Under the pieces are notes generated by a model, which saw only the letters and a list, made by a program, of their open reading frames with translations, was not told the DNA's origin and made no database searches. Position numbers and translations under genes: made by a program. This document shows, one piece after another, positions 21,901 through 64,000 of a stretch of DNA of 64,000 nt. Numbering within the stretch: the first letter of the stretch is position 1; each line of letters opens with the position of its first letter. Source of the DNA: Botryllus schlosseri (lineage: Eukaryota); NCBI GenBank assembly GCA_051294905.1, contig CM119372.1, positions 9,116,001 to 9,180,000 on the forward strand. The letters run 5' to 3'.

Positions 21901-24900
21901 ATCTAAACAATTAGACTGCGAGACAGCTTCAGAGTTTCCCATTACCTGTGGGGTGTGTAGGGATTGCATCGCGTTCTGAAGCACGTTAACACCCAGCCGC
22001 GCGGCGCGGTCCGAAGCGCTTGTGGCGCCGGCAGGAGTCCGGCTGTGAATATGCTCTGAAGAGACGGAGAAAAAAATCGTAAATTCTTCGCACCAGCCGT
22101 CGAAACTCTCAGCAGACTTGACAACCGGATAGGATAATTCTAGTTGTTTAATTAGACGGTAGTCAAAATCTAATCTAATTAGTCAAATGTTACAATGCTC
22201 TTTTAATTCTAATCTAATTTGTTAAAAGTTTCTATGCTCTAACAGTAACTCCAACCTAATTTCTGGTTTTCCTGAAAATGCTACAGAACTGTGTGGTGCG
22301 AGGTGAGCCAAGCTCGCAAACGAGCTTGAACTTGGATTTGATACGAACTGAGTTCGATTTTTGTTGTGCTACTTTTGAATTCAGAATTAAAATCAATCTC
22401 GAAGTTTCACGAATTCAGGTAATTCTCATATTAATCCAATTTGGAAAAGGTGTAGCTATAATTCTAATTTTGATATAATTTGAAAAAAAAAATGCAGCTA
22501 TAATTCTAGTCCTAATCTAATTTGAAAATAAAACTGTAGCTGTAATTCTAGTTCTAATCTAATTTGGAAAAAACTGTAGCTATAATTCTAGTTTTAATAT
22601 AATTTGAAAAAAAAACTAGCTATAATTCTAGTTCTAATCTAATTTGGAAAAAAAACTGTAGCTATAATTCTAGTTCTAATCTAATTTGGAAAAGAAACTA
22701 GCTATAGTTCTAGTTTTAATCCTATTTAGAAAAAAAAACTGTAGCTATAACTCCAGTTCCCATCCAATTTGGAAAAGAACTGTAGCTATAATTCTAGTTC
22801 TAATCTAATTTGGAAAAGAAACTAGCTATAATTCTAGTTTCAATCCAATTTGGAAAAAAGAAACTGTAGCTATAACTCCAGTTCCAATCCAATTTGGAAA
22901 AGAACTGTAGCTATAATTCTAGTTCTAATCTAATTTACAAAAAGAAACTAGCTAGAATTATAGTTTTAATCCAATTTGGAAAAAAGAAACTGTAGCTATA
23001 ACTCCAGTTCCAATCCAATTTGGAAAAGAACTGTAGCTATAATTCTAGTTCTAATCTAATTTACAAAAAGAAACTAGCTATAATTATAGTTTTAATCCAA
23101 TTTGGAAAAAGAAACTGTAGCTATAACTCCAGTTAGTTCCAATCCAATTTGGAAAAGAACTGTAACTATAATTCTAGTTCTAATCTAATTTGGAAATAGA
23201 AAACTGTAGCTATAACTCCAGTTCCAATCCAATTTGGAAAAGAACTGTAGCTATAATTCTAGTTCTAATCTAATTTACAAAAAGAAACTAGCTATAATTA
23301 TAGTTTTAATCCAATTTGGAAAAAAGAAACTGTAGCTATAACTCCAGTTCCAATCCAATTTGGAAAAGAACTGTAGCTATAATTCTAGTTCTAATCTAAT
23401 TTACAAAAAGAAACTAGCTATAATTATAGTTTTAATCCAATTTGGAAAAAGAAACTGTAGCTATAACTCCAGTTAGTTCCAATCCAATTAGGAAAAGAAC
23501 TGTAACTATAATTCTAGTTCTAATCTAATTTGGAAATAGAAAACTGTAGCTATAACTCCAGTTCCAATCCAATTTGGAAAAGAACTGTAGCTATAATTCT
23601 AGTTCTAATCTAATTTACAAAAAGAAACTAGCTATAATTATAGTTTTAATCCAATTTGGAAAAAAGAAACTGTAGCTATAACTCCAGTTCCAATCCAATT
23701 TGGAAAAGAACTGTAACTATAACTCCAGTTCCAATCCAATTTGGAAAAAAAACTGTAGCTATAATTCTAGTTCTAATCTAATTTGGAAAAAATTGACAGT
23801 TAGCTTACGCGGGAGGGGGTCCCGGAAGTGCTCCTTGAACCACTTGAAAACCTGGTTTATCGTCGGGAACACTTGCGCCCGGTAACGGAACCCGTCCGAG
23901 AGAACCGTGACGTACTCGTGCTTCGGCTTCATCCGCGGCATATATGAGAGAAGGAACTTTCCTGGAAAGCACCGGCACAAATTTAGTTTTAATTTCATCA
24001 GATCGATACGCCACAAGACTGAGATACAATGAAAAGATGGGAAGGTGTCGAAACGACTTGGAGTAGTCTCCGAAATTGTTACTACCATTTGAGCAGCAAC
24101 GTTGCCTGCTATGACCGCCTCTGGTCAGCTACAGTGCCAGCCATGACGGTAGATTATTAGGGCAAGCTTTTGCAACTTTTTTTTACAACTTCCCGCAGCT
24201 TCCTAAATACTCGGAAGATATGTAGAATGCTGTTTTAAGCTGTTTGAAGGAATCTTACAGTGCAACTTTATGTCTATTTTTTCTCATGCAACTTTTTGCA
24301 ACATTTTGCAACTTTCGATTTTTCATGAAGGTATTTTCTATTTTGGTGAAATACACACCCAAATTCGACTGAAATACCGTAAATCAGCACTGAAGTAACG
24401 CCCTTACGGGTATTTCGGGAGCTGAGCCGGAAAGTTGACCTTTTTTCTCTTTTTTAGTCAATCAATAGTGAATGCAGATAAAAAACTGTATTTCGGGAGT
24501 GAAACTGCCTGAGATACACTCTGATTTCAGAATTCAAAGACAAAGTGTTATTTCGCACGCAACAGACCGCATCAATTCAACACCGTCGCCTACCTGGCAG
24601 TTCCTTGGACACGCTCAGAAAGTAGGGTATCCTGGACGGCGCGTTCTTTTTCGCCTGCTTCAAAATGTCTTCCAGTATGTCTTTCTTGCCGCCGTTCGCT
24701 TCCCGGTAGTATTTGTGATTGAGAATGTCCCGCGCGTTGGCCGCCATCGGCTGGATGAATCTGGCGATGATCTCGTCCAGATCTTCGAATTCCTGCCATG
24801 AAAATACAGACGCGGTCGGGGTTAGGGTCAGGGTTGATGTTTGTGCTAGGGTTGGATTTAGGGTTATTGGGCGAAGATCATGAAGTTGGAAAAGGTTACG

Positions 24901-40247: not shown

Positions 40248-41600
40248 ACCTACGGAAAATACAAGTCCCCCAATTCAATAGATCTAAATTGAAGATAAAT
40301 TTGAAAATATGTCACCAGAGCTCAACTCTCACTAGGCATAGACTAGAAGTGGGTAAACAGCAAACCGCGACGACAGTCCTGACTTTGCACACTCAAAATG
40401 TTTCAGTTCGTTGAGCAAATAAGAATACCACCTTATCATTCATTTTCTCAAGTGGACCAGAGTGGAATTGGTCATATGCAACTTTCCGTTCAATTACCCT
40501 ATTATGCAAAAAACAATTCTGTCGCAGGCAATTCATCGCTCAAAACAACCACTATTTGCAGTCTGACACAAGTTGAAGCTTCCAAGTGGCAGACCGATAC
40601 ATGCAAACTGCAAAGCATAATTTAAAATGGCAGTTGCACACTTTGTGTTATCATTGTTTCAAAAGCTAAATCACTTTCATTTCATATTTAAGTTGTAATC
40701 TGAATCCTGAATTCATTTCGTATCACAACCTTGTTGAAGTTGGAACATGGTACGCCTATACTGTATTGACGTAACGTCCATTCATATGTCGCACAAAGAT
40801 TCAAAAGTAGGAAACTTCCCAATCCAATAGTAGTAATAAATGGAGTTAATGACAGAATATTTAAAAGTGATGCTGATTACTAGTGAAGGAGCAAAAATCC
40901 CGACACACATTCAATACCCTTCTCAGAAAAATGTCAAAATGTCTGCGACAGCTGAGTATATCCACGGGGCCATTCTACTGACTAGTGGGAGTATTACTGG
41001 ATAAATTAAAAGGAAACAACTTTTGAGTCCCAGTCCCGAGAAGAGTTACCGTAGTATATCAATTTGCCATATTTTGTGAAGCCTTTCAATAAAGCACCAG
41101 GTCTGCTCCACGCCACCTTCTCACAAAGCAAATAACAGTAAAAAAACATCGCCCTGGGCTCAATCACCATAACCTCACATTGACATTACCCTAACACGGA
41201 CGAGGGACGGCCAATTGCAAATTCAACTGGCTCATTTACTGTTGCCAGTGAACTATATATTCAGAGCCAGAAGAGGATTATCGAGCATATGATGTGATAA
41301 ACCCGACCACAGTCGAATGGGGATGTTACCGGGAAGCGCTTTAGCCACTCTCGTCGCGTCTCGCGTGATTATGGTGATAACCGAGGGCTTTCACGACAAG
41401 GGAAGTACGATAATGGTATATGTTAATTGACTCAACTCGTCCTGGCGAAATTTCGGCGAAATCTCTGTGATCACGTGAAACACTATTTCCGCGAACTCGG
41501 AATATTAACCCTCAACTGAGCGTAGGACAGTATTCCACTATTCAATAATCGAAATGTTAGGTTATTCTAAACAAATATAATATCTCTAATACCTATACAT

Positions 41601-42580
41601 CAGTGGTTCCCAACCTGTGGTACGCGTACCACTAGTGGTACGCGAAGGTCTTCCAGGTGGTACGCGAGTAGATTCTGCTTTTTTTTTCGACCGACGGTAG
41701 TTATTAGTTAAGGTGGGGTTGAACACAAAGATTGTTCTCCAATACACTTCAGGCTTAGCATGGCCTCCTCGTACTAGACTCTAGCTTCTCACGCTATTCC
41801 CCAGCTGCTAATTTCCCCTTCTACGTGGGAGCGCGAGCAAGGATTTTTATCTCTGATGACTATCAAGTCGAAGAAACGAAACCGACTAGTTGCGCCCATG
41901 CAGGACTTTCAATGCGCTGTGAGCAAACATATGCCCCGCATCGACCAACTAGTGCAGTGGTTCTCAAACTGGGGGTGGTGGTGAAAACATCTGAAGGGTG
42001 GCGCGAAGCTGAAGCCAACTGAAAAAAAAATTTCGCGCTTCGCGCGATTTACCCCTATCCAATCACATTGTTTTTGCTCTGTGTGTAGTTCTAATTGCAT
42101 ATTTGAGAATTCTTTTATCAACTGTCATAACCTTCCATGCCATCTAATTATTCGTTGGGATCGCTAGCATTCTGGTTGCATTTTGTGATATGACGATTAG
42201 GGGGGGGGGATTTTTCTCTATCATAAACGGAGGCGTGTGTATAAAAGTTTGATAACCGCTGAGCTAGTGGAAAATTAGCTAATGCAGCCATCGCATAAAA
42301 ACAATTGACGTTTGTTGTTTGCTGTTATTTCATTATGTTGTTCTTCTTGTGACTGGTGGTGAAAAAACAATTTCATGCATCCCATTAGCCCTGGCTGATA
42401 ATGCCTAGTTTATTAGTACTTGCTATTACGCCTCGCATGGGTCAAATACGTCGTTATGACGTCATAAATGACGGAAACATTTTTGACCGCCTTCAGCGCG
42501 CGTAACTTATGTAGGTGGTACGCGAGCACTGCATAAAACCTCGAAATGGTACGTGGGTGAAAAAAGGTTGGGAACCACTG
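41601..42580. mobile_element. hAT (Charlie/Buster-like) non-autonomous element nested in the left arm
   Basis: TIR CAGTGGTTCCCAACCT / AGGTTGGGAACCACTG; TSD CTATACAT. The right arm (~55075-55100) shows the empty site with one copy of the TSD. Confidence 0.95.
41955..42261. mobile_element. Charlie-like MITE nested inside 41601-42580
   Basis: TIR CAGTGGTTCTCAAACT / AGTTTGATAACCGCTG (14/16 match); TSD AACTAGTG / AGCTAGTG (7/8). Confidence 0.75.
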
Positions 42581-42639
42581 CTATACATCTTCTATTCACA
42601 GTGAGACCGGCTAACGAGAATCAACTTGACACATTAGTG

Positions 42640-45275
42640 CCATTTTCCCTGTCGCAATATTCCGCTTTCGGATATGTGACCGCCATTCCAAATGGGCGAC
42701 AGATTCCAAAGTATGCTCAATTCCAAGATGAATTCAAGAATGTTTCGCCGATATATTTCACACAATCAACGTATTATCGGAAAGGTCTTTCACAGTACTT
42801 TAAGAAAAATCTAAATTAGGAGTGATTATCGGCCTTGTTTGTTTTTAATACCACTAACAACCTCAGGCAAAATTGGCTATCGGACATATGCCCGCCATTC
42901 CAAATGTGCGACATATTCCAAAGTATGCCCAATTCAAAGCCGAATTCAAGAGTGTTTCGCCGATATATTTCACACAATCAACGTATTGCCGGAAAGGTCT
43001 TTCACAGTACTTTAAGAAAAATCTAAATTAGGAGTGATTATCGGCCTTGTTTGTTTTTAATACCACTAACAACCTCAGGCAAAATTGGCTATCGGACATA
43101 TGCCCGCCATTCCAAATGTGCGACATATTCCAAAGTATGCCCAATTCAAAGCCGAATTCAAGAGTGTTTCGCCGATATATTTCACACAATCAACGTATTG
43201 CCGGAAAGGTCTTTCACAGTACTTTAAGAAAAATCTAAATTAGGAGTGATTATCGGCCTTGTTTGTTTTTAATACCACTAACAACCTCAGGCAAAATTGG
43301 CTATCGGACATATGCCCGCCATTCCAAATGTGCGACATATTCCAAAGTATGCCCAATTCAAAGCTGAATTCAAGGGTCTTTCGCCAATATATTTCACACA
43401 ATCAACGTATTGCCGGAAAGGTCTTTCACAGTACTTTAAGAAAAATCTAAATTAGGAGTGATTATCGGCCTTGTTTGTTTTTAATACCACTAACAACCTC
43501 AGGCAAAATTGGGTATCGGACATATGCCCGCCATTCCAAATGTGCGACATATTCCAAAGTATGCCCAATTCAAAGCTGAATTTAAGGGTCTTTCGCCAAT
43601 ATATTTCACACAATCAACGTATTGCCGTAAAGGTCTTTCACAGTACTTTAGGAAAAATCTAAATTAGGAGTGATTATCGGCCTTGTTTGTTTTTAATACC
43701 ACTAACAACCTCAGGCAAAATTGGGTATCGGACATATGCCCGCCATTCCAAATGTGCGACATATTCCAAAGTATGCCCAATTCAAAGCCGAATTCAAGAG
43801 TGTTTCGCCGATATATTTCACACAATCAACGTATTGCCGGAAAGGTCTTTCACAGTACTTTAAGAAAAATCTAAATTAGGAGTGATTATCGGCCTTGTTT
43901 GTTTTTAATACCACTAACAACCTCAGGCAAAATTGGCTATCGGACATATGCCCGCCATTCCAAATGTGCGACATATTCCAAAGTATGCCCAATTCAATGC
44001 TGAATTCAAGGGTCTTTCGCCAATATATTTCACACAATCAACGTATTGCCGGAAAGGTCTTTCACAGTACTTTAAGAAAAATCTAAATTAGGAGTGATTA
44101 TCGGCCTTGTTTGTTTTTAATACCACTAACAACCTCAGGCAAAATTGGGTATCGGACATATGCCCGCCATTCCAAATGTGCGACATATTACAAAGTATGC
44201 CCAATTCAAAGCCGAATTCAAGAGTGTTTCGCCGATATATTTCACACAATCAACGTATTGCCGGAAAGGTCTTTCACAGTACTTTAAGAAAAATCTAAAT
44301 TAGGAGTGATTATCGGCCTTGTTTGTTTTTAATACCACTAACAACCTCAGGCAAAATTGGCTATCGGACATATGCCCGCCATTCCAAATGTGCGACATAT
44401 TCCAAAGTATGCCCAATTCAAAGCTGAATTCAAGGGTCTTCCGCCAATATATTTCACACAATCAACGTATTGCCGGAAAGGTCTTTCACAGTACTTTAAG
44501 AAAAATCTAAATTAGGAGTGATTATCGGCCTTGTTTGTTTTTAATACCACTAACAACCTCAGGCAAAATTGGCTATCGGACATATGCCCGCCATTCCAAA
44601 TGTGCGACATATTCCAAAGTATGCCCAATTCAAAGCTGAATTCAAGGGTCTTTCGCCGATATATTTCACACAATCAACGTATTGCCGTAAAGGTCTTTCA
44701 CAGTACTTTAGGAAAAATCTAAATTAGGAGTGATTATCGGCCTTGTTTGTTTTTAATACCACTAACAACCTCAGGCAAAATTGGGTATCGGACATATGCC
44801 CGCCAAACCAAATGTGCGACATATTCCAAAGTATGCCCAATTCAAAGCCGAATTCAAGAGTGTTTCGCCGATATATTTCACACAATCAACGTATTGCCGG
44901 AAAGGTCTTTCACAGTACTTTAAGAAAAATCTAAATTAGGAGTGATTATCGGCCTTGTTTGTTTTTAATACCACTAACAACCTCAGGCAAAATTGGGTAT
45001 CGGACATATGCCCGCCATTCCAAATGTGCGACATATTCCAAAGTATTCCCAATTCAAAGCTGAATTCAAGGGTCTTTCGCCAATATATTTCACACAATCA
45101 ACGTATTGCCGGAAAGGTCATTCAAAGTACGTTAAGAAAAATCTAAATTAGGAGTGATTATCGGTCTTGTTTGTTTTCAATACGACTACCAACCTTAGAT
45201 AATATTGCGCTATCAGACATATACCCGCTATTCCAAATGTGCGACAGATTTCAAAGCATACAAATTCCAAGCTGA
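42640..45275 (+). repeat. 212-bp tandem array, left arm (11 near-identical units plus diverged edge units)
   Basis: Periodicity of 212 (42835, 43047 ... 44955). Confidence 0.97.
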
Positions 45276-47923
45276 CCAACGTTGGGAGTGGGGGACGATT
45301 TTATGTTTTGGTCTAGATTCTAGCTACAAGTCACAATAACATTGCATATAAGCCGATGGCTACGACGGCAGGTCCAAATGTTGGGTAAAGAATTGTGAAA
45401 TAACGATTGGCGCCCGTTTCAAGCAGAATCATTTGAGAATAAGAGAAAGTGAACATAAAATTCTGCCTTCAACTTAATACAGATAATGTAATGCAAGTGT
45501 CCATTACGAAAAACGGCTCGGTTATGATATATATCAGCAGCTGTTGATTTTTAATGCTTCGTCGTGGAAACCGTAATGTTTTATTTGACGAGTGGGCTAC
45601 AAAATTTCAAACCTTTGTCCGGTGTTTTGTACAAATAAAAAGTAATAGTTCTTTCACAAAGAACTCGATTAAATACGGCAAGTAGTCGATTACGATTACT
45701 ACGTAATTTTCTCGAATGTAATCGATTGCGATTACGATTACTTGAAAATGATGTAATCGTCATAATCGATTACGATTACTAATCGCAATTACCCCATGTC
45801 TGATCCACAGTAGGCTATATCGTTAACTCAGATTTCAATACTCGACTTTTGGTCTCGACCCTAAGATTTTCAATATATTTCAGACAATGAACACATTAGC
45901 GGAAGGCGCCTTCAAAGTGCACGCGCTTCAATTGTAATGTTGGCCGACTTTCACGCCGAATTCAAGAGCATTCCGCGCCTGCATTTCGGACAATGAGCAC
46001 ATCATCGGAAATGATTCTTTATTATTAGAGTACAGTTTTTAAATGCGAATACAAACCGTGCGTATTATTCCGCTTCTGCACAGTGCATGAGGCGTGTTTA
46101 TTGATGACTCGTGCTTAAAGTGTTTATGTTGGTCGACAATTTCCTTTGATCTGATGTAAGTGATTCCCCGCTGGTAGTAAGATTCTTCGCTCGCCGTGTC
46201 AACTATCAGTGATGACTACTGGTCATCCACCAATATTTACCTATTTATATACGCACTCCTGTATAATTTTAAGATTTATCCCTAATTGGCCCCTAATCTG
46301 ATAAGATCTGACCCCTTTCGGCCACATTTTCCGGCACCCCACTATGCAGCTCATATTCGCTGAGAAAATTCGGTGTAACAGTCCACGCGATTGTATGGCA
46401 TAGTCTCATTTTGTGCGATATTGCACATATCACTATTAGTCGCGTGAGTTGAATCTGTGGGAGCTTTCAAGATCAGTAAATTATATAGCAATCCGTTATC
46501 ACGTCCTAACGTGCATGTGAGGTCTAGGAAGTTCAACATTAGAGTTTACTGCCAGTGTTTCACGCAATTCTCTCTTTCGGGTCAGTACTCGATATAGCTT
46601 TAGAAGTAGTCGACCGTTTGGCGGGGTGGCAGGTATTTTTTTAAATTATTTTATTTCATTATGTCATGTTGTGGGTGATACAATGCGGGTTACCGAGTTT
46701 TGTAATCAATCACGTCAGTACTTCATGTTTGAATTTTACAAGTGATGAAATAATAAGGAATGCATCTATAGGCGCGTATCAAGAGACATGTGATATTATT
46801 ATTGAAATTTTCCAGTTGCACTTATCACCTGTTAAGGTATTTTGTGCCACGAACGCAAACAGTATCATGAAAATTTAAGAATACGGCATTCAGGTGAATC
46901 AAATAGTGGAGAGGACGAATTCAGCAACAGCGGGCGACAGGGAGGGGTTAGATAACACATTAAACATTTTAAAAGGAAATTTGAGCCTAGTATACTCGTC
47001 GCTCAAAAATATGCGATGAAATTGACAAAAGTTCGATATAAGTGAGGACGATGTTTCAACGCATGCAGCAGGAGATCTCATCATTTCTGGTTCAAATAAG
47101 CACGCGACACACTGATATACATCGCGTATCGTGATTGATCGAACTTTCATCGTCTGCGACTGATGTTTTTATTACTGGATGAGCGCATTCAAGATAGGGA
47201 TAATCAGATTACTCGAGTTTTCATTCCGGTTGACCGGTGCGATCGTTTTGGTTGTGTCCGGGTTTGGACCATCCGGAATTATAATATATCGCAGTGTATA
47301 GTTGTTATTATGCCACATTATGCCAAAATGCTCAAGTACATGCTGATATTTTAAGCAACTCCAAATTTATCAACTAACAGGGGTCGCCAACCTTTTTGGC
47401 ACCAAGAGCTACTTTTTGAGTACTGATTGAAGCGGTGGGCTGCCATTTACTTCCGTCGTTTACCCATAAATCAGTGTCTCCCAAACTTTTTTGAGCTACC
47501 ACCCTTCTGGACAGCGAATGAAGCGTTGGTGGCCCCTGAACTAGAACAATGAAATGCTATAATAGTTCGATAAAATCAACATCGGTGCTTTTGCCCCGCA
47601 CGGAAAATCTGAAACCTCGGTTTGTATAGTATCACAGCATATAAAATGCCGAACTAATATCTTTATTTATTCTACAACTGGCATAATTTTGTTTGTGGTC
47701 GTATAAAAGGTACGTGTTTGGAATTTTCACCTAAGTCATTGTATACTTAGGTCATGGGCGACCACAAATTACATCACAATAAAGATTATTTGGTATTTTT
47801 CCATTTCGTAAAATATCGACAGCGAATGAAATGACCGTAAAATGATCAAACGACAGAAGAGGATTTGTTCTTTTGCCGTATTTCAGGTGCTTTTAATTAT
47901 GCGTATATAATGCTAATACTAAT

Positions 47924-49831
47924 ATGACGAAACGGAAAGTAGACAAGAAGGCAGTTGCATTTGATTTGGCAATTTGTCTGGATGCTCTCCCTTCACGGCA
48001 GTCGATCCCTAAGCGTTCAGAGATAGTAAGGTTGTGGACAAGGCGTAGGAAATTTGCATCTATAAAAAATATACAGATGGTGCGAAATCTCTGGAAGAAT
48101 TGCTCCGAATTCAGGGCCATGGTGACTACATTCTTCCGCGAAAACAATGGAATAGACACCGACATCTCTGATTCAGCAATTGAGTCATCTGAAATTGATG
48201 GAGCGGAGAATAATTCGGAACTGATGTTAGGTGTGACGCAAAAGACAGTCATGCAAGCGCCATTTAGGGACGGTGATTCGAAATACGATGACGTCATAGA
48301 ACCCTTATATTGTTACTGCAAGCAACCGTATAAAGGAGAATTCATGGTGCAGTGCGAGGATTGCAAATTCTGGTTTCATCCGAAATGCGCGTTCCCACCG
48401 AACAGCAAAGAAATCAAATTTGATCGTAATCAATGGCGTATTAGGTCTTTGGCTTGTGGTAATGAGCGTAACACTAGCAAACAACGGCTGTTGCATATTC
48501 ACACACCACAGCGCACTGAAAATCATAATCTCGATAAGGAGTTATTGCCTCCCAAGTCTCCGCACGATAAGGTCACAGAACAACATGTAATGTTACATCC
48601 TTCAGATGATGCTTTTCTGATTCGTAATGTCGCTGATGATGATGTCACGGAACATGACGGAATATTTAATCCGTCAGATGATGTTTCTCTGAATCTTAAT
48701 TTCGCTGAGGATGATATCACCGAACAAGAGGAAATAATTAATTTTTCAGATCATGCTTCTATAAATGATAATAACGCTGACGATGATAGCGCAGAACAAG
48801 ACGAAATACCAAAAGCTTCGGATCATGCATCATGTTCTACAGCTTCGCACTCGGCGACTGACAACGTTATGCCAGTTTATGAACGAGACCAATACATCGG
48901 CCCTGCGGAAGCATGGGTAAGTGATTCGGTAATCGAATCGCTTGGGAACATTGAAGCCAGCCTGGCTGACAAAATTAACCAATCGAAGGATATCAACTTG
49001 AAACTATCTACTCCGATATCCTCACAAGAATGGCAAAGAGCTTTTAAAAATCGCGGCAAACATCATTTCGCCAGTGATTCCCCATACGCAGCGATAGTTT
49101 TACAGGCGCTTCTAAAAGTATACGATTCATGTGTACCAATGATAAAGTGTAATTATCTACGGGCTCCGGACAAAGTAACCGAGATTACAGCAGACTCTGG
49201 AAGATATTATGAAGGCAAAGTCACACTTTACTGCGGTCACGCTACATGCTGCGAATGTGCGGTAATGGTCGAAGCTAATTTGTACACTTTGATGACGTCG
49301 GCTCAAATCGATTTTCATATACATGGATGCAGGCATCATCGTCACGAATGTACCAAATCAAGGCGCGTTCAAGGCGAGCAGAGGCATCATTTGAAAGAGG
49401 AACTTGATTACAAAACCCCGACTCAAGTGCATCGGAAATTATATGACCAATTATCAGACAATGAACGTCTTTTAGGGTCACATACATTTGTACCCTCAAT
49501 TAAAGTATTGCAAAACGTCAAAGGAGATGGCTGTCCAGCAACGAAATATTCCAAAAATTGGCTACTCGCAATGGAGAAGATTATGGAAGTCTTCACGAAG
49601 GAAAAAGATACTAATTTTCTACGTGCATGGTCCGCGCATCCCCCAAGCGTTAGTATGTATAATGACGCACAGGTGTCCCTTTATCAAATGCTGTGTCGCA
49701 TAGATTTCCTTTTCTTGGATGCCAGCGGAGGCGTTACGCGCAGCAAGAAAGGGTTTGAAAATTTTCAAATCTACGTACTTTTTATGCGAAATCCAATGGC
49801 GGGTCGGCCCGGAATACCAGCTGCGAGCTGA
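47924..49831 (+). CDS. Transposon ORF, N-terminal part: PHD finger, acidic 24-aa repeats, C2H2-type DNA-binding region, start of a MULE/NOF-like DDE domain
   Basis: PHD motif LYCYCKQPYKGEFMVQCEDCKFWFHPKC; YCGHATCCEC...HRH; FLFLDASGG as the first catalytic Asp ('DATG'-like). A splice acceptor TTTCAG lies at ~47887. Confidence 0.8.
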   Translation: MTKRKVDKKAVAFDLAICLDALPSRQSIPKRSEIVRLWTRRRKFASIKNIQMVRNLWKNCSEFRAMVTTFFRENNGIDTDISDSAIESSEIDGAENNSELMLGVTQKTVMQAPFRDGDSKYDDVIEPLYCYCKQPYKGEFMVQCEDCKFWFHPKCAFPPNSKEIKFDRNQWRIRSLACGNERNTSKQRLLHIHTPQRTENHNLDKELLPPKSPHDKVTEQHVMLHPSDDAFLIRNVADDDVTEHDGIFNPSDDVSLNLNFAEDDITEQEEIINFSDHASINDNNADDDSAEQDEIPKASDHASCSTASHSATDNVMPVYERDQYIGPAEAWVSDSVIESLGNIEASLADKINQSKDINLKLSTPISSQEWQRAFKNRGKHHFASDSPYAAIVLQALLKVYDSCVPMIKCNYLRAPDKVTEITADSGRYYEGKVTLYCGHATCCECAVMVEANLYTLMTSAQIDFHIHGCRHHRHECTKSRRVQGEQRHHLKEELDYKTPTQVHRKLYDQLSDNERLLGSHTFVPSIKVLQNVKGDGCPATKYSKNWLLAMEKIMEVFTKEKDTNFLRAWSAHPPSVSMYNDAQVSLYQMLCRIDFLFLDASGGVTRSKKGFENFQIYVLFMRNPMAGRPGIPAAS

Positions 49832-52069
49832 ACAGCATATTATGGAACTCCTGCGGCTGCAAAGAATATCCGGAATCATAATTTAAAATCCTTAATTTCA
49901 AAGCAGCGGAAATTTGCGGAAACATTGTGGGGCGCAATAGAGCAACAGACCGCGGCAACGGTCGGGGCTAACTTGATGAATATTGCGATAACAACGAAAT
50001 TCAATATCGGTGTGACGTATGCTGATATAATTTCCGTTTGTCCTAACGCATCGGAGGAAACCATTCAAAATCTTAATGACGTCACGACAAATCACACCAG
50101 CGCAGGATGGTTAACGGACAGCATTGTTAATGCATTTGTTCAGCAGTGTGTCGGGGTTAGAAATTCGCAAATAAATGAAGATCATTTTGGGTGTTTGGAC
50201 ACAGACATCTGTGACATGATAATCAGTGGAAGACAGCCTCATTCAGTTGCGGCCACTATTGTTGATAAAAATCAGCAAATTCGCAAGGAAATTATCTGTC
50301 CAGTTCTTATCCGTCAGGAATTCAATCATTTTGCTCTGCTACATTTTCAAGAAATGGATAAAAAGATCACCTTTTACGACTCTTCCGGTGATCGTGAGAC
50401 GGACCAACAAAAGCACATTTTATCTTCGATTACGCAATACCTTTCTGGTATTTCTGGGGCAAATATAAACAACGTAAGGGAGGAATTTTGTGACAAGTTC
50501 CTTCAAAATGACTCGTCGTCATGTGGTGTTTGCGTATGTATGTCAGCGTGGAATATTTGCTTTCAGCAGCATCGCCAAACATATTCACAAAATGAATTTC
50601 GTGGGAAAATCATTTGGGATTTGCTTCAACATTATGTTACGTCATCTCACATTGTACAGAATGCCGAGGTTGAAAGTGGGATAATCACTCAAATTCCAGG
50701 ACTCATAAACTTGGGAAATACATGCTGGTTCAATTCCGTTGTACAGGTATACTCTCATGTCATACGACTGGTGTCGGGGCCTATGGACGACAGTGTGCAA
50801 ATTCATCCGGAAATCACAAATATACTCATTCCATTGACAAACTTGAAGACGGTTGCACTTGACGTGCTAATGAACGCTATTCGAGCTGTATGCGACGGAA
50901 ATCATTTGGAATTTGGTAGTCAGCACGATTGTTGTGACTTCATTTGGATGTCACATTTGCCGAAAGTATTGAAAGAGCTGGGATTGAAGCACGAATTGAA
51001 GTATGAAAAGATCACACAATGTGAGACATGCAATATAAATCAAACAGAAACGTACCATCAAAAAATGTTCGACGTGGATTGCGGAGTGAAAACGATAGCT
51101 GATGCATTTGAAATTTTGAAACGAACATGTGGAAAATGTGGTTCCATGATGGATATTAATGTCAAATTCAATGAGACTCCAAGGATAGTGACCGTGCGCC
51201 TTAACCGTTTGAACGACGAAGCTGAAAAGTTGGAAAATGTCGTCATTCCCAGTAGAAATCTGGACATCAAAGGATCTAACCAAATCCTGATTGGATATGC
51301 CCTCAAGGCGGTGATCGCACACAGCGGAACCTCCCAAAACGGGCATTATACTGCATATTTAATGAGCCCAAAGAGATCGGTGCAGCTATGCGACGACGAA
51401 CATGTGAGATTTGTGGATTCGAAAAAAGCCTTCGATGTCATGTCTAGATCGGGATACATCTTTCTTTATGTTAAAAAACATCCAAAACGAAGGCCTCTGC
51501 AATCGTCACCCCAGACCGAATATTTTATGAAAGCACTGCCATCGATTATTGCGGATGTCAATGATGAAGTCAAGGAAATGGGCGATGCGATATGCCAAAA
51601 TGTTGTAAAAATTGCTAATCTGACATTACAGGAGGCGAAGAGTAAAGTTCGGTATCAGTATCATGCTTTATTTCTCGAAAGAAAATACAGCAAATTACAA
51701 AAAATGATCTTACCTGTAACGACGGATTCTGGAAGAGAACATTGGAACGACGAACTTGAAGTGATATTAAATTATATCAGAAGTAAGACTTGTATCACGC
51801 ATGAAAGATGGATAAGAAGTTTGACCACAGGTGACGAATACAAATCCACCCGACACTTTTCGCGACCAGTTCTGAACAATGCTTTCGTGCATAAAGAAAG
51901 TGAGCTCGTAACGCAATTGGGGCCAACCTACAATTGCAGTAAATATTTCAAATGGGTTGTTTTTCCTGAAGTTGCTTTGATGTATCTATCGATTATCGAG
52001 AAGAGAACATATGAACAAGTTCTGGAAAATATGAATCGATTGACCGAAGAACTCAATCGGCAGTGGTAA
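49832..52069 (+). CDS. Transposon ORF, C-terminal part: ULP/C48 SUMO-type protease, USP/C19 deubiquitinase and an unknown C-terminal domain
   Basis: C48 motifs: GWLTDSIV, NHFALL, FYDS, QNDSSSCG. C19 motifs: GLINLGNTCWFNSVVQ, QHD, CETC/CGKC, VIAHSG...GHY, CDD, GYIFLY. The frame is open directly from 49832 and is the same frame as the upstream ORF. Confidence 0.88.
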   Translation, partial: TAYYGTPAAAKNIRNHNLKSLISKQRKFAETLWGAIEQQTAATVGANLMNIAITTKFNIGVTYADIISVCPNASEETIQNLNDVTTNHTSAGWLTDSIVNAFVQQCVGVRNSQINEDHFGCLDTDICDMIISGRQPHSVAATIVDKNQQIRKEIICPVLIRQEFNHFALLHFQEMDKKITFYDSSGDRETDQQKHILSSITQYLSGISGANINNVREEFCDKFLQNDSSSCGVCVCMSAWNICFQQHRQTYSQNEFRGKIIWDLLQHYVTSSHIVQNAEVESGIITQIPGLINLGNTCWFNSVVQVYSHVIRLVSGPMDDSVQIHPEITNILIPLTNLKTVALDVLMNAIRAVCDGNHLEFGSQHDCCDFIWMSHLPKVLKELGLKHELKYEKITQCETCNINQTETYHQKMFDVDCGVKTIADAFEILKRTCGKCGSMMDINVKFNETPRIVTVRLNRLNDEAEKLENVVIPSRNLDIKGSNQILIGYALKAVIAHSGTSQNGHYTAYLMSPKRSVQLCDDEHVRFVDSKKAFDVMSRSGYIFLYVKKHPKRRPLQSSPQTEYFMKALPSIIADVNDEVKEMGDAICQNVVKIANLTLQEAKSKVRYQYHALFLERKYSKLQKMILPVTTDSGREHWNDELEVILNYIRSKTCITHERWIRSLTTGDEYKSTRHFSRPVLNNAFVHKESELVTQLGPTYNCSKYFKWVVFPEVALMYLSIIEKRTYEQVLENMNRLTEELNRQW

Positions 52070-53130
52070 TATTACAATATTGGCTTCATGAAATGTATCC
52101 TTATCTTGAACGGATCATTCGAGCATCGACGTAGCCGTCAGCGGCACAGCGGCATTCCCGGAAATGAAATTGCGGATGAATTATTGCGTCCGTCCGTTTT
52201 CGACCGAATATCGTCATTTGGAATATCGCGTCGACATGATAATATTTTTTTTGCCTTTTTCCAGGTCATTAACTACTAACAGTGCATCTGTTTAAAATTG
52301 GGTGTATTGATTCTCCTACATTTGACTTCCGTTTTCTACCTGACACAATCGACTATTTTCTTTTAACATGTTGTAAATACGCGCATCATATATTGCTGTG
52401 ATTAATGTGAACTTTTGATATGTATTTCTACTGATTTAACGTTTACTCACGAGGTGCACCAGACCGTTAACGGCGATAAGCGCTACTTCATTTTTTACTA
52501 TCTATAATAATAATAACAATATTGGTTTGCCATGTATTGATTTTTTGTATCTAAGCTATCACGTAACGGCAGTGAGTTGCTAACATTCTACAAAGATGTA
52601 TTGTGCAAGTATTTAATATATTTCAACATATATTGGGGTTACTTGGATTTTTGTTGGAAGATAAACAAGTTGTTGAAGTTGTATCCGTGTTTCGAAATAG
52701 TGGTCTAAGTATCGTAGAATTGAAAACGTTGTTGTTAGTTCGGTCGGTCCTTCGCGACATACCGAATAGCTGAGTAATAGGATTGACCAAACAATGTTTA
52801 GACTGCGTATCAGTATTTGAAGTATTCAACATTAGGCAGGGGCGTATCGTTGACCACGGAATTATGAAAGCTACCGTTCTGTGGTGTCCACGTCTTGCGA
52901 TCAGTTTTTACACTTGCAAATGTCGGCTCAACTCACAAAACAGAGTAGCGAAACAGTTTAGTGTTCATGCTCAGTTCATACATCAAGCGAAGTCTCATGA
53001 TGTCAGCGGGGATTAATTCACTTACATAAGATCTTAGCGTATAATACAGCACGACGACTACAATTCCACTTAATAAATGGATCATCAACAAACCTGCAAC
53101 ATGCACTGCATAAAACCACTGTACAGAACA

Positions 53131-55010
53131 AACAAGGGCGATAATCATCTCTGAATTTAGATTTTTCATAAAGTACTTTAAAAGACCTTTCCGATAATAC
53201 CTTGATTGTGTGAAATATATCGGCGAAACACTCTTGAATTCAACTTGGAATTTGTATGCTTTGGAATCTGTCGCACATTTGGAATGGCGGGCATATGTCC
53301 GATACGCAATTTTACCTGAGGTTGGTAGTGGTATTAAAAACAAACAAGGCCGATAATCACTCTGAATTTAGATTTTTCTTAACGTACTTTGAAAGACCTT
53401 CCCGACAATACGTTGATTGTGTGAAATATATTGGCGAAAGACCCTTGAATTCAGCTTTGAATTGGGCATACTTTGGAATATGTCGCACATTTGGAATGGC
53501 GGGCATATGCTGTCCGATAGCCAATTTTGCCTGAGGTTGTTAGTGGTATTAAAAACAAACAAGGACGATAATCACTCCTAATTTAGATTTTTCTTAAAGT
53601 ACTGTGAAAGACCTTTCCGATAATACGTTGATTGTGTGAAATATATTGGCGAAAGACCCTTGAATTCAGCTTTGAATTGGGCATACTTTGGAATATGTCG
53701 CACATTTGGAATGGCGGGCATATGTCCGATACGCAATTTTACCTGAGGTTGGTAGTGGTATTAAAAACAAACAAGGCCGATAATCACTCTGAATTTAGAT
53801 TTTTCTTAACGTACTTTGAAAGACCTTCCCGACAATACGTTGATTGTGTGAAATATATTGGCGAAACACTCTTGAATTCGGCTTTGAATTGGGCATACTT
53901 TGGAATATGTCGCACATTTGGAATGGCGGGCATATGTCCGATACCCAATTTTGCCTGAGGTTGTTAGTGGTATTAAAAACAAACAAGGCCGATAATCACT
54001 CCTAATTTAGATTTTTCTTAACGTACTTTGAAAGACCTTTCCGGCAATACGTTGATTGTGTAAAATATATTGGCGAAAGACCCTTGAATTCAGCTTTGAA
54101 TTGGGCATACATTGGAATATGTCGCACATTTGGAATGGCGGGCATATGTCCGATACCCAATTTTGCCTGAGGTTGTTAGTGGTATTAAAAACAAACAAGG
54201 CCGATAATCACTCCTAATTTAGATTTTTCTTAAAGTACTGTGAAAGACCTTTCCGGCAATACGTTGATTGTGTGAAATATATCGGCGAAACACTCTTGAA
54301 TTCGGCTTTGAATTGGGCATACTTTGGAATATGTCGCACATTTGGAATGGCGGGCATACGTCCGATAGCCAATTTTGCCTGAGGTTGTTAGTGGTATTAA
54401 AAACAAACAAGGCCGATAATCACTCCTAATTTAGATTTTTCTTAAAGTACTGTGAAAGACCTTTCCGGCAATACGTTGATTGTGTGAAATATATCGGCGA
54501 AACACTCTTGAATTCGGCTTTGAATTGGGCATACTTTGTAATATGTCGCACATTTGGAATGGCGGGCATATGTCCGATACCCAATTTTGCCTGAGGTTGT
54601 TAGTGGTATTAAAAACAAACAAGGCCGATAATCACTCCTGATTTAGATTTTTCTTAACGTACTTTGAAAGACCTTTCCGGCAATACGTTGATTGTGTGAA
54701 ATATATTGGCGAAAGACCCTTGAATTCAGCTTTGAATTGGGCATACATTGGAATATGTCGCACATTTGGAATGGCGGGTATATGTCTGATAGCGCAATAT
54801 TATCTAAGGTTGGTAGTCGTATTGAAAACAAACAAGGCCGATAATCACTCTGAATGTCGATTTTTCTTAAAGTACTGTGGAAGACCTTTCCGATAATACG
54901 TTGATTGTGTGAAATATATCGGCGAAACATTCTTGAATTCATCTTGGAATTGAGCATACTTTGGAATCTGTCGCCCATTTGGAATGGCGGTCACATATCC
55001 GAAAGCGGAA
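53131..55010 (-). repeat. 212-bp tandem array, right arm (inverted, ~9 units)
   Basis: Reverse complement of the 42640-45275 units. Confidence 0.97.
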
Positions 55011-55530
55011 TATTGCGACAGGGAAAATGGCACTAATGTGTCAAGTTGATTCTCGTTAGCCGGTCTCACTGTGAATAGAAGATGTATAGGTATTAGAGAT
55101 ATTATATTTGTTTAGAATAACCTAACATTTCGATTATTGAATAGTGGAATACTGTCCTACGCTCAGTTGAGGGTTAATATTCCGAGTTCGCGGAAATAGT
55201 GTTTCACGTGATCACAGAGATTTCGCCGAAATTTCGCCAGGACGAGTTGAGTGTTAATTGCTAAGAGCGCTTTCGCGGTCGCTGCTTATCTTTTCAGTAA
55301 ATATTTCACACAGGAAATAAACAATGTCCCTGATAAACCACAATATTAGTCCAGCAGATTGCTTCGCTTTACAAAAAGTGTACTGATCATTTGTGTTGGG
55401 CTAAGAATACGGTTGACATAACTTGCAAGAATATTTGACCCAAAATTTCCATGCATTTGTCCTGCCTATGTCATGAGGACAGTAGACAAGTTAAATCGTT
55501 ATAAACGGAAAAACTTAATGACCTACTCTC

Positions 55531-55951
55531 CAGAGATGAGCGGATTGGGAATTTCTATGTCCTAATCCAATCCAAATCCAAACCTTCAAATCCAAATTCA
55601 AATCCTTATCCATACCTTTTTCATATTCAAATCCATGTCCAATCCTAATCCGATTCTAACTGGAAATTCAGAAAAAATGCTAATTTGTGCAAGGGAGGAA
55701 TTGGAAAATTTTCTTTCACAACCAACGATTCCCTTGATTCAAGATAACTTAGTAACCATAAGAACATCAATAACTGATCTGAATAAAGTTTGTCGCCATT
55801 CGCCACTCGACATATCGATCTCCCAGAAAATAGGTAAATCCAATCCAAATCCTAATCCGTTCAGAAAAAAATCTCTAATGCTAATCCAATCCAAATCCGA
55901 CAAAATTTCACAAATCCTGTTTTTTCAAATCCTAATCCATGCTCATCTCTG
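55531..55951. mobile_element. hAT MITE (AATCC-rich)
   Basis: TIR CAGAGATGAGC / GCTCATCTCTG; perfect 8-bp TSD CTACTCTC. Confidence 0.9.
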
Positions 55952-56025
55952 CTACTCTCTCACAGTGTTGTATGATAAAAACCACTGAGCTATAAATTTA
56001 TCGAAGGGTTGATACAACTGTCGTT

Positions 56026-56120
56026 TCAATTCAATTTATTGCTAACAATTTCATCATTTCAATACACCACAAGACTGCGATACAATGAAAGAATTGAAGG
56101 TGTCGAAACGACTTGGATAC
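56026..56120 (-). repeat. Dispersed repeat, probable 3' end of a non-LTR retroelement
   Basis: Minus strand reads TCCAAGTCGTTTCGACACCTTC...AATAAATTGAATTGAA. Related copies at ~24010-24065 and ~31040-31120. Confidence 0.55.
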
Positions 56121-61385: not shown

Positions 61386-64000
61386 ACTCGAGTCGTCCTG
61401 GCGAAATTTCGGCGAAATCTTTGTGATCATGTGAAACACGATTTTTGACATGACGAAATATTAACCCTCAACTTGACGATTCACCGATTGCTCCATTGAA
61501 ACGGATCCATCCTGTGTCGAAATATTCCGATTTTCACTAAATACACATTCGGGCATGCTGTATTTAGGGATTGTCTTTCGTCCTGCTTAATTTTGAATAC
61601 GATTAGCAACTTTTACGCTATATTTCGCTCTTGTTTGAGTACCGAACTGCCGATGTACAGCAAATGTCTATTTTCAGACTGGATTTGAGAGTGTACCTGA
61701 CATACAATTCCGCCAATGGACACATCATCGGAAAGAGCTTGCAAAGTGCTTTAATAAAAATCCATTTTCATTTTCAACTTCGTCCTGGTTAAGTACGATT
61801 ACGAGTACCAATAAAGCATTTCATTACGCTGTCGACCATTGCGTCGGCATCAGTTTCAACGAACGGCAAATGCCGAATTCCGGGCAGGTTTTTGAGATTG
61901 TGCCTGACTTGCAATTCCTATAATGAACACATCATTGGAAAGGGCTTGCAAAGTACTTCAATAAAAACCCATTTTCGTTTTCAACATCGTCCAGGTTAAT
62001 TAGAAATAAGACTGCCAAAAAATGCATTGCATTGCGCTGCCGGGCATTGTATCGGGATCAATTCAATGAACGGCAAATGCAAAATTTCAGGCGGGTTTTT
62101 GAGATTGTACCTCACTTGCAATTCCTATAATGAACACATCATCGGAAAGGGCTTGCAAAGTACTTCAATAAAAACCCATTTTCGTTTTCAACATCGGCCA
62201 GGTTAATTAGAAATAACAGTGCCAAAAATGCATCGCATTGCGCTGCCGGGCATTGTATCGGGATCAATTCAATGAACGGCAAATGCCAAATTTCAGGCGG
62301 GTTTTTGAGATTGTACCTCACTTGCAATTCCTATAATGAACACATCATCGGAAAGGGCTTGCAACGTACTTCAATAAAAACCCATTTTCGTTTTCAACAT
62401 CGGCCAGGTTAATTAGAAATAAGACTGCCAAAAATGCATCGCATTGCGCTGCCGGGCATTGTATCGGGATCAATTCAATGAACGGCAAATGCCAAATTTC
62501 AGGCGGGTTTTTGAGATTGTACCTCACTTGCAATTCCTATAATGAACACATCATCGGAAAGGGCTTGCAAAGTACTTCAATAAAAACCCATTTTCGTTTT
62601 CAACATCGGCCAGGTTAATTAGAAATAAGACTGCCAAAAATGCATCGCATTGCGCTGCCGGGCATTGTATCGGGATCAATTCAATGAACGGCAAATGCCA
62701 AATTTCAGGCGGTTTTTTGAGATTGTACCTCACTTGCAATTCCTATAATGAACACATCATCGGAAAGGGCTTGCAAAGTACTTCAATAAAAACCCATTTT
62801 CATTTTCAACATCGGCCAGGTTAATTAGAAATAACAGTGCCAAAAATCCATTGCATTGCGCTGCCGGGCATTGTATTGAGATCAATTCAATGAACGGCAA
62901 ATGCCAAATTTCAGGCGGGTTTTTGAGATTGTACCTCACTTGCAATTCCTATAATGAACACATCATCGGAAAGGGCTTGCAAAGTACTTCAATAAAAACC
63001 CATTTTCGTTTTCAACATCGGCCAGGTTAATTAGAAATAAGACTGCCAAAAATGCATCGCATTGCGCTGCCGAGCATTGTATCGGGATCAATTCAATGAA
63101 CGGCAAATGCCAAATTTCAGGCGGGTTTTTGAGATTGTACCTCACTTGCAATTCCTATAATGAACACATCATCGGAAAGGGCTTGCAAAGTACTTCAATA
63201 AAAACCCATTTTCGTTTTCAACATCGGCCAGGTTAATTAGAAATAAGACTGCCAAAAATGCATCGCATTGCGCTGCCGGGCATTGTATCGGGATCAATTC
63301 AATGAACGGCAAATGCCAAATTTCAGGCGGGTTTTTGAGATTGTACCTCACTTGCAATTCCTATAATGAACACATCATCGGAAAGGGCTTGCAAAGTACT
63401 TCAATAAAAACCCATTTTCGTTTTCAACATCGGCCAGGGTAATTAGAAATAAGACTGCCAAAAATGCATCGCATTGCGCTGCCGGGCATTGTATCGGGAT
63501 CAATTCAATGAACGGCAAATGCCAAATTTCAGGCGGGTTTTTGAGATTGCACCTCACTTGCAATTCCTATAATGAACACATCATCGGAAAGGGCTTGCAA
63601 AGTACTTCAATAAAAACCCATTTTCGTTTTCAACATCGGCCAGGTTAATTAGAAATAAGACTGCCAAAAATGCATCGCATTGCGCTGCCGGGCATTGTAT
63701 CGGGATCAATTCAATGAACGGCAAATGCCAAATTTGAGGCGGGTTTTTGAGATTGTACCTCACTTGCAATTCCTATAATGAACACATCATCGGAAAGGGC
63801 TTGCAAAGTACTTCAATAAAAACCCATTTTCATTTTCAACATCGGCCAGGTTAATTAGAAATAACAGTGCCAAAAATCCATTGCATTGCGCTGCCGGGCA
63901 TTGTATTGAGATCAATTCAATGAACGGCAAATGCCAAATTTCAGGCGGGTTTTTGAGATTGTACCTCACTTGCAATTCCTATAATGAACACATCATCGGA
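61386..64000 (+). mobile_element. Terminus and arm of a second, diverged Foldback-family element (runs off the right edge)
   Basis: Begins ACTCGAGTCGTCCTGGCGAAATTTCGGCGAAATCTTTGTGATCATGTGAAACAC...ATATTAACCCTCAACT, closely matching the 41430 terminus, and leads into a tandem array. Confidence 0.85.
61700..64000 (+). repeat. 206-bp tandem array
   Basis: Periodicity of 206 (62139, 62345 ... 63787); the first units are more diverged. Confidence 0.97.

Follow-up and report, generated by a model that had tools for sequence, protein, structure and literature searches.

The window analyzed here, 64,000 nucleotides of Botryllus schlosseri DNA (assembly GCA_051294905.1, contig CM119372.1, positions 9,116,001 to 9,180,000 of the forward strand), carries a long open reading frame (ORF) in which a protease domain of the Ulp1/SENP type (peptidase family C48; ULP) is followed by a deubiquitinase-type domain (family C19; USP). 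We show that these two domains constitute the C-terminal accessory part of a single giant transposase gene, which belongs to a multi-copy cut-and-paste DNA transposon of the foldback type. The full-length protein, of ~1680 amino acids, consists of a PHD finger, a Cys/His cluster, a DDE-type core with a CxxH motif, a basic linker (KFKKR..RR), the ULP domain, the USP domain and a tail of ~190 amino acids. In the original prediction, the protease pair had been described as a module inside a DNA transposon; the tandem C48/C19 arrangement and the intactness of its catalytic residues stand, whereas the idea of a separate captured module does not, because the pair is part of one transposase frame (1678 amino acids in the genomic copy L015). 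We place the probability that the identity of the domains, the one-gene architecture and the status of the window copy as a deletion derivative are jointly correct at roughly 0.8.

One gene for transposase and proteases

The one-gene organization is seen in copy L015, where positions 2486-7519 form an uninterrupted frame of 1678 codons, the product of which (P0001) has both PHD and USP matches. In tblastn alignments, the two open frames of the window match this protein in order, the first over residues 1-565 and the second over residues 944-1670. The second of the two, a 745-codon frame at 49832-52066 on the plus strand with its stop codon at 52067-52069, had been credited with 746 stop-free codons, one more than we count, and includes the region 50090-51480 to which the protease domains had been assigned. 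The first, of 644 codons (47897-49828, plus strand), is in phase with it, and the sole separator is a TGA at 49829-49831. The product of the first frame, counted from its Met10, shares 50% identity with residues 1-565 of the L015 ORF and contains a PHD finger (PF00628, E 3.1e-7, residues 139-173, nucleotides 48311-48415), with the best PDB matches to DIDO1, PHF8, PHF2, Spp1, EBS and BPTF, proteins known as readers of H3K4me3. The basic linker ahead of the ULP domain (KFKKR..RR.GYY) is kept in the window, in L015 and in the database relatives P0005, P0011 and P0017.

What separates the two frames in the window became apparent from the comparison with a sister copy, L013, which holds 1113 extra bases (L013 3359-4471) exactly between window positions 49829 and 49830. 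The two copies share 99.6% identity over the part that ends at 49829 and 96-98% over the part that begins at 49830, and the junction in the window reads AGC/TGA/ACA. The extra segment of L013 encodes LIIVIDGSKAVWNAV, NCYSHS and TQGSVEQFF; we interpret these as the second Asp motif, a CxxH motif and the Glu motif, respectively, of a transposase of the DDE type. A 4.2-kb stretch of the window used as a query gave 58 matches in the 495-Mb genome, 23 of which overlap the USP part, the window's own place included, and many of these alignments break at query position 1933/1934, that is, at the TGA. Judged from these alignments, the window copy is an internal-deletion derivative, in which an in-frame loss of 1113 bp deprived the putative transposase of its second Asp and its Glu. 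Because the transposase core was lost through this deletion, the window copy is non-autonomous and unable to move itself, and it is probably dead. Most likely, it makes at best a PHD-containing stub of 634 amino acids, and its protease frame is most likely untranslated unless ribosomes read through the TGA or initiate internally. The protease frame of this copy would thus be open because the copy is young, not because the frame is used; in itself, this copy is unremarkable, the debris of a recent insertion that has suffered an internal deletion.

The two protease domains

The original prediction of tandem C48 and C19 domains with intact-looking catalytic residues is borne out by the presence of all the motifs named in it and by Pfam, profile and fold matches. 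For the ULP domain, the motifs are FNHFALL (residues 164-170), FYDSSG (181-186) and LQNDSSSCGVCVC (224-236), with the catalytic codons for His166 at 50327-50329, Asp183 at 50378-50380 and Cys231 at 50522-50524, in addition to Gln225. The C48 call is real, though the Pfam score of the single sequence is borderline, with a partial PF02902 match of 19.3 bits (E 0.0011; gathering cut-off 20.7) for the window protein and no PF02902 match at E ≤ 1 for the L015 protein. The call is confirmed because relatives pass the cut-off (5 of the 18 scanned, namely, P0009, P0021, P0022, P0049 and P0121, with 25.5-58.2 bits), because a profile built from 12 sequences of the ULP region (A3) matches SENP2 (E 3.1e-7), SENP1 (8e-7), Ulp1 (3.2e-5) and SENP8 (1.1e-4), and because the predicted fold matches that of Ulp1. 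In the profile matches, His166, Asp183, Gln225 and Cys231 align with the catalytic positions of the SENPs; among the 12 rows of A3, the Gln is invariant and conservation is at least 90% for the His and Cys, with the Asp column below 90%. The AlphaFold model, which covers residues 55-560 and was computed from a 27-sequence alignment, has a mean predicted local distance difference test score (pLDDT) of 86.4. Residues 1-216 of the model superimpose on Ulp1 (1euv_A) with a Z score of 20.9 and a root mean square deviation of 2.4 over 186 aligned residues, and on SENP3, SENP8, SENP5 and SENP1 with Z scores of 18.8-20.6.

The USP domain is recognized from sequence directly, with a PF00443 match to the window protein at E 4.4e-22 (79.4 bits against a cut-off of 23.9; profile positions 2-254 of 254, residues 290-546) and a match of 56 bits to the L015 protein; the cut-off of this family (UCH) is likewise passed by 5 of the 18 relatives scanned. 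Its motifs are GLINLGNTCWFNS (from residue 290), GSQHDCCDF (362-370), AHSGTSQNGHY (496-506) and LCDDEHV (519-525), and the two CxxC pairs of the zinc ribbon lie in QCETCN (396-401) and TCGKCG (432-437). The catalytic codons are those of Cys298 (50723-50725), His505 (51344-51346) and Asp521/522 (51392-51397). Residues 231-501 of the model match USP2 (6dgf_A) and USP12 (5l8w_A) with a Z score of 24.0 and a root mean square deviation of 3.2 over ~260 residues, and a Foldseek search with the model returned at least 500 matches, those listed being USPs only (best E 9.1e-19). Profile search and structure prediction, both of which had been suggested along with the original prediction, thus yielded C48 and C19 profile matches and folds that match Ulp1 and USP2/USP12, respectively.

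Beyond the USP domain, the frame continues for ~195 residues that are conserved but without a Pfam match, and the relatives P0003 and P0004 likewise extend past this domain. A phage-type identity of this C-terminal region was considered as well: Atlas features placed it with phage hypothetical proteins at low recognition (1990), and this candidate was dismissed as uninformative.

The foldback element

The window element spans positions 41430-55252 (13.8 kb; Table 1). The earlier statement that the proteases reside inside a DNA transposon is corroborated by inverted ends that are 100% identical and by an 8-bp target duplication, GTTAATTG, at both flanks, which becomes 9 bp if one includes the T with which the right end terminates. 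The left inverted repeat is broken by an unrelated high-copy element of ~980 bp, for which the genome holds 8255 first-look candidates and 40 scored matches with 85-97% identity; the insertion is flanked by a 9-bp duplication, seen from the right arm, where bases 55081-55089 are complementary to the left arm on either side of it. Inside the inverted ends lie two subterminal arrays of a 212-bp unit in inverted orientation. Other subfamilies are built similarly, with inverted arrays of ~204 bp in L018 and L019, and a related terminus, ACTGAAGTGGTCCTGGCGG, is present at both ends of the subfamily-A copy L016. On these sequence features, the window element is a foldback-type cut-and-paste transposon that inserted recently, the recency following from the complete identity of the inverted ends and the perfect 8-bp duplication. 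The copies L016, L020, L021 and L022 are 96-99% identical to L015 at the protein level, which suggests recent activity of subfamily A.

Table 1. Features of the foldback element in the 64,000-nucleotide window
Feature	Positions	Strand	Remarks
Left target-site duplication GTTAATTG	41422..41429	.	Identical 8 bases at 55253-55260, just outside the inverted ends
Left terminal inverted repeat, outer part	41430..41601	+	Starts ACTCAACTCGTCCTGGCG; 100% reverse-complementary to 55252-55081
Nested unrelated high-copy element, ~980 bp	41602..42580	.	Breaks the left inverted repeat
Left inverted repeat, inner part	42581..42670	+	100% reverse-complementary to 55089-55000
Left subterminal array, 12.3 copies of 212-bp unit	42664..45275	-	Tandem Repeats Finder; inverted relative to the right array
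Truncated 5' transposase part, Met10 of the frame to the junction TGA	47924..49831	+	PHD finger, Cys/His-rich region, first catalytic Asp motif (FLFLDASGG)
Junction TGA	49829..49831	+	Made at junction 49829/49830 of the 1113-bp, 371-codon in-frame deletion
745-codon frame and stop: linker, ULP, USP, C-terminal region	49832..52069	+	First Met is codon 49
C48/Ulp1-like domain	49994..50641	+	ORF residues ~55-270; Pfam, family profile, fold match, motifs
C19/USP domain	50684..51481	+	ORF residues 285-550; four zinc-ribbon Cys
C-terminal region, ~195 amino acids	51482..52066	+	Conserved; without Pfam match
Right subterminal array, 8.8 copies of 212-bp unit	53127..55002	+	92-94% identity to the left array, inverted
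Right terminal inverted repeat	55000..55252	-	Last 90 bp kept (87-89%) at the ends of L017, L018 and L019 subfamilies
Right target-site duplication GTTAATTG	55253..55260	.	

An element reaching further to the right was also considered on the basis of shared 5' and 3' matches at 56043-56117 to loci of other subfamilies, and was dropped given the perfect inverted ends and the duplication at 41430/55252. Just outside the right end, at 55530-55955, lies a high-copy repeat of ~430 bp (4758 first-look candidates; scored copies 91-95% identical) that looks like a short interspersed element or a miniature inverted-repeat transposable element.

Conservation of the layout and selection

An exhaustive search of 1.84 billion representative sequences produced 372 matches with E ≤ 0.001, of which 150 were listed. 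Among those 150, four proteins, P0003, P0004, P0005 and P0006, cover both protease domains (E 1.9e-39 to 2.8e-24), and about a dozen shorter ones match the ULP-like part alone or reach the USP Cys box; in P0011, P0019, P0020, P0042 and P0052, again among the matches listed, the ULP domain runs into the USP Cys box. The most complete picture is offered by P0005, a protein of 2074 amino acids that combines the PHD finger, the transposase motifs YFDATGS, IMIMIDGSMAMWNAV and NRTQGIIEQHF, the basic linker, the ULP domain and the USP domain, and that is 36% identical to P0001 in the core. In P0017 and P0011, the transposase end or the linker is present ahead of the ULP domain, and distant relatives with the same layout show 25-30% identity. 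In addition, P0003 (647 amino acids) and P0004 (788 amino acids) are predicted ULP-USP proteins without the transposase part, encoded on contigs of 2.7 and 9.0 kb, respectively. The 10 relatives that were looked up come from ENA, Logan or JGI assemblies. Word-based homologue searches gave no match for residues 940-1500 of P0001, nor for the transposase alignment A2. As the aligned relatives indicate, the PHD-transposase-ULP-USP architecture is old and shared.

The ratio of nonsynonymous to synonymous substitution rates (dN/dS), a check that had been proposed with the original prediction, was estimated by the Nei-Gojobori method between subfamilies, comparisons inside subfamily A involving too few changes to be informative. 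Between the window copy and L024 (dS ~0.28), dN/dS is 0.21 for the ULP domain, 0.26 for the USP domain and 0.52 for the tail; between the window copy and L015, at a dS of ~0.9 that is near saturation, the respective values are 0.38, 0.42 and 0.29. The protease domains thus fall at 0.21-0.42, not near 1, and the transposase core yields 0.245 for L013 versus L015. Furthermore, the catalytic motifs of both proteases are present in all six genomic copies compared, the last USP site being Asn-Asp in subfamily A. Because the dN/dS values are alike and the motifs are kept in 6/6 copies, both proteases are maintained by purifying selection in the same way as the transposase, in the lineages that spread.

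Evidence to the contrary and alternative explanations

Several observations weigh against the interpretation given above. In the subfamily to which the window copy belongs, none of the copies examined is intact, L013 being frameshifted, and only one copy has a clean target duplication, with none in L016. The transposase core is recognized by its motifs and has no Pfam match to the MULE (PF10551) or KDZ (PF18758) families, either in P0001 at E ≤ 1 or in five members of A2 at E ≤ 10; an hhalign comparison of the DDE core with a 61-sequence profile of Mutator-like elements (MULE) gave P 0.0011 and a probability of 20% over 88 columns, against P 0.041 for the reversed control, and the AlphaFold model of the core, based on a 5-sequence alignment, has a mean pLDDT of 34.6. 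The fold modeled for the ULP domain does not point to one substrate, being about equally similar to the SUMO proteases (Ulp1, SENP1/3/5) and to the NEDD8 protease SENP8 (Z 19-21). Finally, one of four RNA runs gave 22 reads, all at 48792-49313 and with four fixed differences that assign them to another copy.

These reads suggest a transcribed fragment of a related copy elsewhere; their 5' end is loose at 48812, where it looks like a template-switch adapter, and they diverge after 49225. The run with the 22 reads has none on the protease frame, and the three other runs gave zero reads, the presence of the organism in those runs not having been shown, so that the RNA data constitute evidence neither way on expression of the proteases.

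Conjugation of SUMO and ubiquitin is central to the silencing of transposons in animals and to the clearing of proteins stuck on DNA, and the family described here hard-wires predicted erasers of both modifiers, together with a predicted reader of a histone mark, into its transposase. In the mechanism that we consider, the PHD finger of intact copies would dock the transposase protein on chromatin, and the ULP and USP domains could strip SUMO-type and ubiquitin-type modifiers, mixed SUMO-ubiquitin chains included, off the transposase, the neighboring chromatin or silencing factors. Removal of the modifiers would shield the transposition complex from SUMO- or ubiquitin-driven extraction, degradation or heterochromatin formation. 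We infer such PHD-docked deSUMOylation and deubiquitination tentatively and consider an anti-silencing or transposase-stabilizing role plausible, at somewhat less than even odds; if true, it would offer a direct way into the counter-defences of DNA transposons. That the protein is a self-targeting reader-eraser machine, which brings its own deSUMOylase and deubiquitinase to chromatin against SUMO- and ubiquitin-dependent control by the host, seems rather unlikely. The host control in question could be silencing through PIWI-interacting RNAs and heterochromatin, or the extraction of DNA-bound transposase by a SUMO-targeted ubiquitin ligase and p97. If true, this reading would amount to a counter-defence principle for animal DNA transposons that is conserved across distant hosts, and protease-only deletion copies such as the window copy might add to the pool in trans.

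A different use of the same activities would be the steering of repair, whereby the module edits ubiquitin and SUMO signals at the excision break (on histone H2A/H2B, PCNA and the like) and favors copy-back of the element. The choice between pathways of break repair is governed by ubiquitin and SUMO, and fusion to the transposase would put the enzymes at the break. The PHD finger, however, resembles readers of promoter marks rather than of damage marks, and repair steering is indistinguishable here from anti-silencing or self-protection; we regard it as distinctly unlikely. Alternatively, the proteases could cleave the giant polyprotein, or a partner, into functional parts, in the manner of adenain in Polintons and adenoviruses. 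A single very long multidomain ORF would be compatible with such self-processing, and proteases of clan CE perform maturation in some mobile elements and viruses. Against this possibility, no ubiquitin-like domain is detected by Pfam in P0001 or the window frames, the conserved basic linker ahead of the ULP domain has no Gly-Gly site by eye, and enzymes with the USP fold normally require a folded ubiquitin-like substrate, which makes self-processing quite improbable.

Passive capture, in which the ULP-USP pair is a transduplicated piece of a host gene, a cargo of the Pack-MULE kind with no role for the element, would be in line with the frequent uptake of host gene fragments by Mutator-like and Helitron-like elements and with the separate recurrence of UCH and Peptidase_C48 domains in the latter, as reported in the available part of PMC11417382. 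Yet, the two domains lie in frame within one 1678-codon ORF, evolve at dN/dS of 0.2-0.4, comparable to the 0.245 of the transposase core, and retain the same tandem order in relatives of 25-30% identity; moreover, the nearest solved cellular USP (USP2) is reached only at E 2e-9, unlike what is expected of a recent host copy. Passive capture is thus very improbable. It is hardly credible that the window frame functions as a protease gene in its own right, one that lacks a transposase and either provides ULP-USP in trans or is heading toward domestication. In its favor are the 745 open codons, in which all the catalytic residues are retained and a Met (codon 49) precedes the ULP domain, along with the predicted transposase-free proteins P0003 (647 amino acids) and P0004 (788 amino acids). 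However, the frame sits directly behind a stop codon in the same transcript frame, openness is expected without selection in a copy so young (inverted ends 100% identical), the sole RNA run giving any reads has 0 on this frame, and P0003 and P0004, on contigs of only 2.7 and 9.0 kb, may represent incomplete gene predictions or deletion copies of a similar kind.

Other repeats in the window

Apart from the foldback element, the window contains a large satellite with a 210-bp unit (1-758, 2112-4214 and 5570-16618), the longest block of which has 52.7 copies with 92% matches; this satellite has a strong guanine-cytosine (GC) skew (+0.15) and is unrelated in sequence to the 212-bp unit of the transposon. 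The window ends within an array (61684-64000) in which a 206-bp unit is repeated 11.2 times with 95% matches; it has a weak similarity to the 212-bp unit (46 bp, 80%) and may belong to another foldback element as one of its arms. An AT-rich nested tandem array with periods of 41, 126 and 340 bp occupies 22432-23792, a region with 32.5% GC.

Comparison with known systems

Parts of the architecture have precedents: ULP domains on transposons, OTU, UCH and C48 domains singly on Helitron-like elements, and a PHD finger on a Mutator-type transposase (Rehavkus) are already known. Our full-text search of the literature, with Repbase entries and paper supplements outside its reach, yielded no paper in which ULP and USP are described in tandem on a cut-and-paste transposase of the DDE type.

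Among plant transposons, CACTA elements reportedly carry Peptidase_C48, and KI-MULE/Kaonashi elements carry ULP1. The family in B. schlosseri resembles both in having a C48 domain on a cut-and-paste transposon but differs from them in that theirs is ULP alone, usually in a separate ORF or in place of the transposase, with no USP and in plant hosts. Zisupton carries a SUMO-protease domain as well. As described in the available part of PMC12730594, Zisupton/KDZ elements possess very large transposases and produce an 8-bp target duplication, both as observed here; in contrast, the KDZ family PF18758 has no match on the proteins of the present family. The genome search with PF18758 gave 0 matches, but so did its controls anywhere, which makes this search uninformative; no CxC cluster families matched on the proteins.

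The affinity of the DDE core to Mutator is suggestive only. The hhalign alignment with the MULE profile runs from the first Asp motif to the second, and language-model features, which we treat as a lead only, place the core beside MULE/SWIM clusters (0.91-0.94). Pfam detects no transposase family in P0001 or in five family members, and none of the 104 genome matches of PF10551 falls in the copies of the PHD-transposase-ULP-USP family examined. Elsewhere in the genome, L026-L034 form a separate Mutator-type family with frames of 456-465 amino acids, PF10551 scores of 64-72 bits and ZSWIM1/3-like relatives in many invertebrates; two of the database relatives of that family, P0201 and P0249, also carry a PHD finger.

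In Helitron-like elements, OTU, UCH and Peptidase_C48 domains are stably kept at fixed positions, with UCH and C48 appearing separately among 20 recurrent domains (PMC11417382, available part). The common theme is the retention of deubiquitinase-type and ULP-type domains in proteins of mobile elements; the difference, as far as the available part of the same source goes, is that those are rolling-circle elements with RepHel, in which the domains are single, not a ULP-USP tandem fused to a DDE transposase.

Among the groups described so far, Rehavkus comes closest; it is placed in or beside the Mutator superfamily, and the present family resembles it in its described features. According to the available part of PMC6446971, Rehavkus elements, which are known from Repbase only, occur in arthropods and annelids, contain a minisatellite and a single ORF, encode a PHD finger and produce a 9-bp duplication; in Tribolium, they are of the foldback type, their long inverted ends containing tandem repeats in subterminal position (bioRxiv 10.1101/2024.12.02.626372, available part). 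The PHD finger in the transposase, the single ORF and the subterminal tandem repeats in long inverted ends are all found here, in addition to the distant Mutator-like signal in the DDE core. The available portions of PMC6446971 and 10.1101/2024.12.02.626372 do not mention protease domains for Rehavkus, whereas these are present here, and the duplication, given as 9 bp in the corresponding part of PMC6446971, is 8 bp in our one clean case, or 9 if the terminal T is counted.

With the cellular SENP/Ulp1 and USP enzymes, finally, the transposon-encoded domains share the folds and the catalytic residues, but the identity in structural alignments is only 14-23%. The Cys box has a Trp (GNTCW) in place of the Tyr or Phe of cellular USPs, the catalytic His of the ULP domain is followed by Phe and not by Trp as in the SENPs, and, in contrast to their cellular counterparts, the two protease domains form part of a single fusion protein with a transposase.

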